Shown here: one piece after another, positions 7,464 to 8,608 of the stretch
Position numbering within the stretch: the first letter of the stretch is position 1
How the letters are laid out: every line of letters begins with the position of its first letter
Source: a virus
Lineage: Monodnaviria > Loebvirae > Hofneiviricota > Faserviricetes > Tubulavirales > Inoviridae
IMG/VR virus record: IMGVR_UViG_2711768069_000001
Direction: 5' to 3' (one strand)
Length of the DNA: 10,788 nt
Made by a program: the position numbers and the translations under genes
Notes under the pieces: generated by a model
Told to the model about the DNA's origin: nothing
The model's database searches: none
Seen by the model: only the letters and a program-made list of their open reading frames with translations

Positions 7464-7850
7464 ATGAGTGGTAATAATGATGGTAGCGGAGTAATTCTTC
7501 TTTGTATGGCTGGCGTAGGATTGGCTGGACTTTTTATCTCAAATACATTCGGTGTGCCTTTCCTTGAGGGCATTAAGATCCTTCCAAAATTATTAGTATG
7601 GCTTGTTGTTTTTGGTTTGATTGCTTATAGCGGTTTTTTACGTCCCGTTATACCAATTGGTCTTGCGACACTTTGGACGTGCTTCACTCCAATTCTCGAT
7701 TATAAAGCTGGATGGAGACCTGAAGATTCCTTTCAACCTGAAGTAGCCTGGTATGGGACTAGCTCAGGTCAAACAATAGTATTTTTTGCGATTCTAATTA
7801 TTGGGTATGGCATTCTTTATTGGATTAACAATAGAAATAGATATTATTGA
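7464..7850 (+). CDS. Cargo gene A: small polytopic membrane protein, 128 aa, 3-4 predicted TM helices, unknown function
   Basis: ATG at 7464 with GAGGAAGG Shine-Dalgarno. Hydrophobic segments at about residues 10-29, 38-57, 61-77 and 104-121. AT-rich coding sequence. Confidence 0.6.
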   Translation: MSGNNDGSGVILLCMAGVGLAGLFISNTFGVPFLEGIKILPKLLVWLVVFGLIAYSGFLRPVIPIGLATLWTCFTPILDYKAGWRPEDSFQPEVAWYGTSSGQTIVFFAILIIGYGILYWINNRNRYY

Positions 7851-7859
7851 GGTGTCAGA

Positions 7860-8129
7860 ATGAAAGATGAAAAGTATGAACGCCAAATTACATTACTCTG
7901 CCCGATTTGTGGAAACAGTCGATTGGAGCATGATGAGTTTACAAATGAAGTAACATGTATTTCTTGCGGAAAAACATCTAACTACGAACAGTTAACCGAA
8001 GATAATGGTGAACGCATTGATTTAGTTGCGAATGAAGTAGTGCGTGAAGTAAAAAACGATCTAGAGAAGCATTTTAATGACATGTTTAAAAAAGCGTTTA
8101 AAGGTAACAAAAATATAAGGATAAAATAA
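7860..8129 (+). CDS. Cargo gene B: Cys4 zinc-ribbon protein, 89 aa, unknown function
   Basis: CPICG...(17 aa)...CISCG motif followed by a charged, probably helical C-terminal region. GAGG Shine-Dalgarno 6 nt upstream. Stop overlaps the start of gene C (TAATG). Confidence 0.65.
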   Translation: MKDEKYERQITLLCPICGNSRLEHDEFTNEVTCISCGKTSNYEQLTEDNGERIDLVANEVVREVKNDLEKHFNDMFKKAFKGNKNIRIK

Positions 8130-8608
8130 TGACAATCAGTGACGCAATCGCTTTGGCTGCACTTGTAGTGTCCATCTATACAATCATATCCTCTGAAATC
8201 AAATCAAGAAAAAGCGATAAAGAACAAAGGGGTATAAAAGAAGAGCAGAACAGAATAAGGCGTCTCCTGCTTGATAAGGAAACCAAGCTAGCTTTGGAAG
8301 AAAAGAGAGCTGACATCAACGCTAATTTAGTCAAAATCGGCACAAATAAATATAGATTAAAGATTTTTAATAAAGGAAAGGCAGCGGCAAGAAGCGTTCG
8401 GATCGCATTTCCGGATAATGATGGAGAAGAGTTTCTGATCATGTCTGAAATCGAACGAAAGATGCCTTACGAAGTATTGTATCCACAACAAACGATTGAG
8501 TTAATTGCAAGTATACATATGGGATCAAAATCAAAATATAAAATTAGATTATTATGGTGTGATGATTACAATAAAATGAACGAACAAGACATTGTAGTTT
8601 CTATATAA
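8129..8608 (+). CDS. Cargo gene C: single-pass membrane-anchored protein, 159 aa, unknown function
   Basis: N-terminal TM helix (AIALAALVVSIYTIISS), then a Lys/Glu-rich helical segment and a C-terminal domain. AAGGA Shine-Dalgarno 7 nt upstream. Translationally coupled to gene B. Confidence 0.65.
   Translation: MTISDAIALAALVVSIYTIISSEIKSRKSDKEQRGIKEEQNRIRRLLLDKETKLALEEKRADINANLVKIGTNKYRLKIFNKGKAAARSVRIAFPDNDGEEFLIMSEIERKMPYEVLYPQQTIELIASIHMGSKSKYKIRLLWCDDYNKMNEQDIVVSI

Follow-up and report, generated by a model that had tools for sequence, protein, structure and literature searches.

A mobile gene pair for a zinc-ribbon protein and a predicted membrane protein, shared by dif-integrated filamentous prophages and IS1202-family insertion sequences

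We analyse here the cargo genes of a filamentous prophage of the Inoviridae contained in IMG/VR virus record IMGVR_UViG_2711768069_000001, a stretch of 10,788 nucleotides which is called the window below. The cargo consists of four genes on the + strand, named A, B, C and D, and the loci compared with it are named L001 and so on. Our analysis shows that B and C, coding for a small zinc-ribbon protein and a predicted single-pass membrane protein, make up a widespread mobile two-gene unit, which is found on inoviruses, on insertion sequences (IS) of the IS1202 family, on conjugative plasmids and in defence-rich genomic islands. The prophage itself is CUS-1/Ypf-like, integrated by XerCD at dif and located beside hipA, and its cargo slot contains at least two independent accessory modules, one being A and the other B-C, here together with D. 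We further put forward, tentatively and as one possibility, that B-C is an unrecognised and widespread (at least 1,187 clusters at 50% identity) membrane-anchored anti-phage or anti-plasmid system, which in Enterobacterales would have been captured by CTX-type inoviruses and by IS1202-family IS, with its alleles exchanged through sequence shared by the phage attP hairpin and the IS end. On the whole, the anatomical and contextual part of this account is held with high confidence, while for the account as a whole, with a defence or abortive-infection function of B-C included, we see the chances as about equal on either side.

Genes B and C as a two-gene unit

Among 71 further loci, 67 have a complete C, and the sequence upstream of it is sufficient in 65. 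In all of these 65 loci B immediately precedes C in the same orientation; 64 of the loci have a gap of -4 to +19 nt, and in the window the start of C overlaps the stop of B (ATGA). The strict co-occurrence and the overlap of the genes make it most likely that B binds C. Alpha-, beta- and gammaproteobacteria are all represented, with loci of Enterobacterales as well as of Caulobacter, Rhodospirillales, Cupriavidus and Marinobacter, and most of the loci retrieved have no inovirus genes. Without A, the pair is present on more than 100 plasmids, and also in insertion sequences, in chromosomal islands and in metagenomes; it occurs alone in Lonsdalea, while two Salmonella inovirus backbones have A-B-C without D. 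On this co-occurrence, the possibility that A-D form one four-gene system was rejected. In addition, B-C is kept in heavily deleted inovirus remnants at the chromosomal dif of Lonsdalea (L010, 7180-8552) and of Pectobacterium (L026, 1021-3060), where the structural genes are all gone and the pair has outlived the phage; a truncated A also persists in the Pectobacterium remnant. Three bins labelled Candidatus Nanosynbacter, Methanoculleus and Coriobacteriia (L027, L030 and L033) hold enterobacterial-type inovirus or proteobacterial-type B-C loci, and likely represent misbinning or contamination of the assemblies.

The product of B belongs to NCBIfam family NF047912 (ECs_2282_CxxC, putative zinc-binding), with a score of 43.3 bits against a cut-off of 37, and has two CxxC pairs, the four cysteines C14, C17, C33 and C36 being invariant in 17 homologues. 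It ends in a conserved basic tail, LKKAFKGxKNIRIK. The family is without assigned function, and ECs_2282, the member from which it takes its name, is a lone 66-residue gene in prophage Sp12. In the PADLOC database B gives weak and partial matches, to PDC-M14A (2.9e-6, positions 17-99 of a profile of 152) and to the C-terminal parts of PDC-S64 and HEC-08. Hydropathy, calculated here and below on the Kyte-Doolittle scale in windows of 19 residues, gives no hydrophobic segment in B (maximum 0.12) and none in D (0.34). Gene D is present in the clade of the window and in the cassettes borne by IS, and is absent from the Salmonella, Lonsdalea and distant B-C loci; no relative of it is found in Pfam or in the Protein Data Bank (PDB).

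The product of C has one hydrophobic segment, at residues 1-25 (peak 1.99). In the AlphaFold model (mean confidence, pLDDT, of 76) a helix at 3-24 is followed by a long helix at 30-58 and an immunoglobulin-like (Ig-like) beta-sandwich at 63-158. The N-terminal segment reaches a hydropathy of at least 1.6 in 40 of 48 diverse homologues, and in all 48 the 15 residues after the helix are richer in lysine and arginine than those before it, so that by the positive-inside rule C is predicted to be N-out/C-in with the Ig-like domain in the cytoplasm. The single N-terminal membrane anchor that the original prediction, made from the window alone, had proposed for C is thus borne out by hydropathy, model and homologues, the membrane location being a predicted one. 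One face of the helix is formed by conserved small residues (A8, A11/L12 and S15), which suggests that C may self-associate in the membrane. The C family comprises 1,187 representative clusters at 50% identity, and among the best 150 listed nearly all members have 145-165 residues, with no fusions. Neither C nor D has a sequence match in the PDB. C was also considered as a holin, and is not assigned to this class: the match to phrog_1350 (0.0011) spans residues 1-63 only, there is no endolysin in the window, and inoviruses do not lyse their hosts.

A P2 Old-type nuclease (8e-87), SIR2-STAND, CARF and AbiZ proteins and a type IIG restriction enzyme (8e-234) are encoded no more than 5 kb away from distant B-C pairs. 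Among 147 neighbouring open reading frames of 25 B-C loci, the family totals include three OLD/AAA_15 proteins, restriction genes of type I and of the Eco57I type, GajA (4e-124) and McrBC, and the same 147 frames include five integrases and four resolvases. Such neighbourhoods carry the signature of mobile defence islands, an association which we take as suggestive.

Carriage by filamentous phages and insertion sequences

The backbone of the prophage is 99.9% identical to that of a prophage in Escherichia coli 6EVA up to position 7437, and the identity is back at 9026, so the variable cargo slot is delimited as 7438-9026. The region 7500-9000 is AT-rich (30-38% G+C, compared with 42-49% in the flanks), as expected of acquired cargo. 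The same backbone adjoins hipA in further E. coli strains with differing cargo, which is a 369-residue protein in 6EVA, other hypothetical proteins in LD39-1, and in E. coli isolate 10 (L040, 4190-5002) a DUF2971 protein matching the PADLOC candidate PDC-S31 (3.9e-48), beside an MltR-like regulator; the prophage of isolate 10 is in tandem. Conversely, the A-D cassette is found at 93-94% nucleotide identity inside another inovirus backbone, whose regulator region is only about 72% identical; one copy of this second backbone adjoins hipA and another is in tandem. At the megablast level the cassette A-D is absent from all 5,426 complete E. coli genomes searched, and GenBank phage records give no homologues of A or C. 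The claim of the original prediction that these genes are cargo of a filamentous prophage holds.

The right border of the slot is a hairpin of the CTX attP type (Table 1), in which two inverted dif-like sites are placed round a GC stem, 77 nt from the stop codon of hipA. Its left arm is GGTTCGCACAA-TGACG-TTATGCTAAAG, after which the GC stem-loop begins, and its right arm, TTTCAACATAA-CGTGTATGACA-TTATGCGCACC, bears the XerC-type arm (9113-9123). The viral strand folds at -32.5 kcal/mol (z = -8.2), with the XerC- and XerD-type arms paired and the central region unpaired. In every enterobacterial context the hairpin shows about 90% conservation, which exceeds that of the cargo genes, and the circular phage L037 has it intact. 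A reading of the stem at 9056-9092 as a terminator only was rejected as the whole account, because the structure continues into the two dif-like arms and its conservation is higher than that of the coding sequence. Related prophages (L001, L013 and L014) have a perfect dif at the other junction, and for the prophage of the window a true dif, like the one at 1865 in L001, is expected at the left junction, about 270-335 nt outside position 1. The inovirus core genes, the inverted dif-like pair in one hairpin and the dif at the junction of relatives together place the element among the CTX-type prophages integrating by XerCD. Elements of the CTX-phi type integrate through XerCD and carry cargo beside attP, such as ctxAB in CTX-phi and puvA in E. 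coli CUS-1. The present prophage is like them in lying at dif, in having a folded attP of two inverted dif-like sites, in its tandem copies and in the accessory genes beside attP; it differs in that its cargo is no toxin or known virulence gene but a mosaic of small modules, one of which is also found in IS and in defence islands.

On plasmids of Klebsiella, E. coli and Serratia, a transposase of 465-466 residues labelled 'ISNCY' precedes B-C, with or without D. The layout of these elements is transposase, B, C, in some cases D, and then a hairpin, all within inverted repeats of about 50 nt starting with TGT; the copies are 2,932 or 3,014-3,015 bp long and are flanked by 5-bp target duplications (AAGTA, AACAT and AAGTC), and their left end is 5 bp from the XerC arm at three different Xer sites. 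The ISAba32/ISAjo2 subgroup of the IS1202 family, including ISKpn21, ISKpn63 and ISKpn65, has been described as targeting Xer sites and carrying unrelated 'hypothetical' passenger genes (10.1101/2022.12.17.520857; PMC10132070). Our elements resemble this family in the size of the transposase, the TGT...ACA ends, the 5-bp duplications, the spacing to the XerC arm and the passenger frames between the transposase and the right end, and we assign the homologous cassettes in L002, L017, L047, L066 and L068 to its passenger genes; the difference is that the published papers link the passenger genes to neither inoviruses nor an attP hairpin. Identity with ISKpn21 itself was rejected, since the listed length of 2,278 bp (Siguier et al. 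2022, 10.1101/2022.12.17.520857; PMC10132070) compares with 2,932-3,015 bp here, and the elements are relatives of it. The window itself has no transposase or IS ends, and the cassette is here phage cargo.

The two kinds of carrier are shown to share sequence beyond the genes. The passenger segment of the IS closes with most of the phage attP hairpin, truncated at CTTTTCAACATA shortly before the right inverted repeat. In the phage, CTTTTCAACAT forms the XerD-like arm of attP, and in the IS it forms the right end on its inner side. The same CTTTTCAACAT is found just inside the right inverted repeat of a sister IS whose passenger gene codes for an ASCH-domain protein; the IS compared lie at 12889-15095 in L002, 6091-9022 in L002/L047 and 2982-5995 in L017, and their passengers differ (ASCH in one, B-C-D in another). 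It is plausible that this shared sequence served as a point of recombination between phage and IS for the exchange of cassettes. Two IS copies share 94% identity in their transposases but only 45% in B, 41% in C and 48% in D, showing that cassette alleles were exchanged within one IS. When the window is compared with the Klebsiella IS, the synonymous divergence (dS) is 0.24 for D and 0.8-1.1 for B-C, and the hairpin is conserved as well; that D is closer than B-C and the hairpin is kept points to a mosaic origin. The sharing of cassette and hairpin shows that there has been gene flow between filamentous phages and IS that both home to XerCD sites, a link of which no description was found in the literature searched.

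Gene A and the remaining features of the prophage

Genes A-D are intact open reading frames, and the ATG of A follows GAGGAAGG. In the product of A a first hydrophobic segment covers residues 6-31 (peak 2.14), a second covers 33-65 (peak 2.03) and corresponds to two adjacent helices, and a third covers 100-123 (peak 1.98). The AlphaFold model (pLDDT 70) agrees, with helices at 5-28, 39-56, 59-83 and 100-127, so that the polytopic protein with three or four membrane helices of the original prediction is recovered, four being best supported, and its membrane location is predicted. The charge pattern suggests an N-in/C-in topology. A conserved loop of about 25 residues, PILDYKAG...WYG, is predicted to be exposed, and A has no match in Pfam, NCBIfam or PADLOC. 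The ratio of nonsynonymous to synonymous divergence (dN/dS), computed against two homologue sets, is 0.10 for A and ranges from 0.06 to 0.26 for A-D, all of which are under purifying selection and are therefore real genes. A is found alone with its own attP hairpin directly after it in inovirus L022, together with unrelated AT-rich cargo in the circular phage L037, alone on the plasmids L021 and L038, and directly after the regulator in at least four inovirus backbones. It is a separate accessory gene, for which the conserved exposed loop leaves room for a phage-specific role in the envelope. L037 (NZ_CP128883.1, 9,565 bp) was deposited as an untypable non-mobilizable E. coli plasmid, and is actually a complete circular inovirus genome in its replicative form.

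Upstream of the cargo, the inovirus core is located on the - strand at 938-6817 and includes a secretin, Zot-type pI, pVI, pIII, pVIII, a single-stranded-DNA-binding protein (G5P) and the pII replication protein. The HTH_3 regulator, transcribed divergently from it, is the final backbone gene ahead of the slot and is 100% identical in E. coli 6EVA, whose prophage holds other cargo. It is followed by A, B, C and D, all on the + strand, by the long attP hairpin and by the converging hipA and hipB genes of the host. In the interval from the regulator to A no sigma-70-like promoter was detected, and the regulator probably supplies the transcription that reads into A-D. At the left border of the slot, a block of 58 nt contains three small hairpins. 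It shares 93% identity with part of the 'major intergenic region' of phage If1 and, over a stretch of 41 nt, 98% with Alteromonas phage phiAFP1, a striking degree of conservation between distant hosts; these hairpins are probably an inovirus origin or packaging element, and may represent the minus-strand origin or the packaging signal. The left end of the prophage (1-941, - strand) has more small accessory genes. One codes for an 88-residue protein, labelled a HigA-family antitoxin in the identical 6EVA prophage, and overlaps a small upstream frame (1-228); a hypothetical protein of 104-150 residues follows it. Possibly this end is a further cargo region that holds a toxin-antitoxin-like pair.

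Table 1. Position and supporting evidence of the cargo genes, the preceding regulator and the border elements of the slot
Feature	Position in the window	Strand	Basis
HTH_3 (Cro/C1-type) regulator, divergent from core	6836..7369	+	Pfam HTH_3 5.7e-7; phrog_3557 3.4e-24
Intergenic hairpins (three small), left border of slot	7381..7438		Folding; If1/phiAFP1 identity
Gene A, 128 residues, four predicted membrane helices	7464..7850	+	Hydropathy, AlphaFold, phrog_4174 1.1e-35
Gene B, 89 residues, predicted cytoplasmic four-cysteine zinc-ribbon protein, conserved partner of C	7860..8129	+	NCBIfam NF047912, alignment
Gene C, 159 residues, predicted single-pass inner-membrane protein	8129..8608	+	Hydropathy, AlphaFold
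Gene D, 129 residues, predicted soluble protein, optional third cassette gene	8639..9028	+	phrog_22661 3e-35
CTX-type attP hairpin, right prophage/host junction, right border of slot	9031..9123		Folding, conservation

Possible function of the B-C pair

What was already known of the system is the CTX-type dif prophage and the IS1202-family IS as a transporter of passengers; A, C and D are in no described family, and B is in a zinc-ribbon family that has a name only. Scans of A-D in Pfam, NCBIfam, PHROGs and PADLOC led to nothing beyond this zinc ribbon and phage families without assigned function. A defence or abortive-infection device is the reading of B-C that we favour, and for it we propose the following working model. 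C would be anchored in the inner membrane by its N-terminal helix, with the coiled helix and the Ig-like sandwich facing the cytoplasm, where B would bind it. At this face B might sense a cue from a phage or a mobile element, and C would then act at the membrane, either by association of its small-residue helix or by holding the complex at the site of DNA entry. The pair would in this way be a selfish but useful passenger of its carriers.

Membrane-anchored effectors or sensors are known from several defence systems, such as Cap15 of CBASS, the transmembrane effectors of Pycsar and KwaA/KwaB of Kiwa. B-C is like these in being a small operon on mobile elements and in defence islands, with a membrane-anchored protein and a cytoplasmic partner; it differs in lacking a cyclase and a nucleotide-binding or DUF4868-type partner, and A, C and D have no PADLOC match. 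To our knowledge, one membrane helix joined to an Ig-like sandwich, as in C, is an architecture not described for systems of this kind. As for PDC-M14, the zinc ribbon of B aligns to part of PDC-M14A, though partially and weakly, while A, C and D match no PDC-M14 partner; no description of PDC-M14 was found in the literature searched.

Several results weigh against a defence function. The reading rests on neighbourhood, with some of the neighbours chosen after the Pfam results and without matched control loci. A, C and D have no match in PADLOC-DB v2 at E <= 1 and B has partial ones only, so that the genes are assigned to no known or candidate anti-phage system, and no description of A-D was found in the literature searched. 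Fold searches give generic matches to beta-sandwiches and helical bundles only, with no catalytic or pore-forming feature visible, and a distant homologue of C on small Acinetobacter plasmids has no detectable B. Finally, these neighbourhoods, with plasmids, IS, prophages and toxin-antitoxin genes, would also suit an addiction module.

Such a module, with C as a membrane toxin and B as its zinc-ribbon antidote, stabilising the prophage or the IS-bearing plasmid, is the rival that we take most seriously, though we regard it as unlikely. B-C is indeed a small overlapping two-gene operon on plasmids, IS and prophages, often beside TacAT, ParDE, BrnTA or HigA-like genes; degraded prophages keep it; and the N-terminus of C bears the weak resemblance to holin family phrog_1350 noted above. 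However, neither B nor C matches a toxin-antitoxin family in Pfam or NCBIfam, and the pair is not assigned to the type II class; C has a large and well-conserved soluble beta-sandwich, unlike small membrane toxins, and B is without a recognisable DNA-binding domain of an autoregulator. Since addiction and abortive infection overlap, this explanation is partly compatible with a defence function. A role in the Xer/dif lifestyle, for example modulating XerCD or the membrane-bound FtsK by B-C, with or without D, in favour of integration or against excision, is by comparison very improbable. Phage-encoded activators of Xer do exist, such as XafT of TLC-phi, and the Enterobacterales cassette is carried by two unrelated classes of elements exploiting XerCD, and is there invariably accompanied by the attP-derived hairpin, itself more strongly conserved than the genes. 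But this sharing is more simply explained by both elements landing at dif and having CTTTTCAACAT in common, as the sister ASCH IS also does; no dif-like site lies within 5-6 kb of any distant B-C locus, showing that the module works without dif; and no similarity to Xer, FtsK or XafT-type proteins was found in Pfam or NCBIfam.

The original prediction suggested A and C together as envelope cargo for superinfection exclusion or abortive infection, which a filamentous phage could use to keep out its relatives at the pilus or in the Tol pathway. Part of this stands, in that exclusion or abortive infection is still the most plausible class of function, but A and C are no functional pair, and the partner of C is the soluble B, which had been omitted. 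Filamentous phages have known means of exclusion, such as PfsE of Pf4 and the occupancy of TolA by pIII in Ff, the likeness lying in small phage-encoded envelope proteins that protect the lysogen; in this comparison, made by description only, B-C differs in not being limited to inoviruses and in facing the cytoplasm, and only A could plausibly act in such a way. Both A and C are predicted in the inner membrane and encoded in an inovirus cargo slot, and the position of A after the regulator in at least four inovirus backbones, with its conserved exposed loop, suits a phage-specific role for A alone. An exclusion device made of A and C is nevertheless improbable: the two separate freely, C pairs with a cytoplasmic protein and has its own domain predicted on that side, and most of the B-C loci retrieved are free of inovirus genes, so that a superinfection function directed at Ff is not indicated. 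As to the pilus and Tol pathway, nothing points to the pilus or TolA; no similarity to TolA-, TolQRA- or pilus-binding proteins was found in Pfam, PHROGs or the PDB, C is predicted to be mostly cytoplasmic, and A would expose only its short loop.

If the proposed role of B-C in defence is true, dif would be a trading post for defence cargo, at which filamentous phages and IS exchange their passengers. As a defence or abortive-infection system the pair would be compact and tractable, with 250 residues in total, and no entry in current defence catalogues combines a zinc ribbon with a single-pass Ig-like protein in this way. The 'hypothetical' passengers of ISKpn21-type IS, which are common on the plasmids of clinical Klebsiella and E. 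coli, would likewise gain a function.

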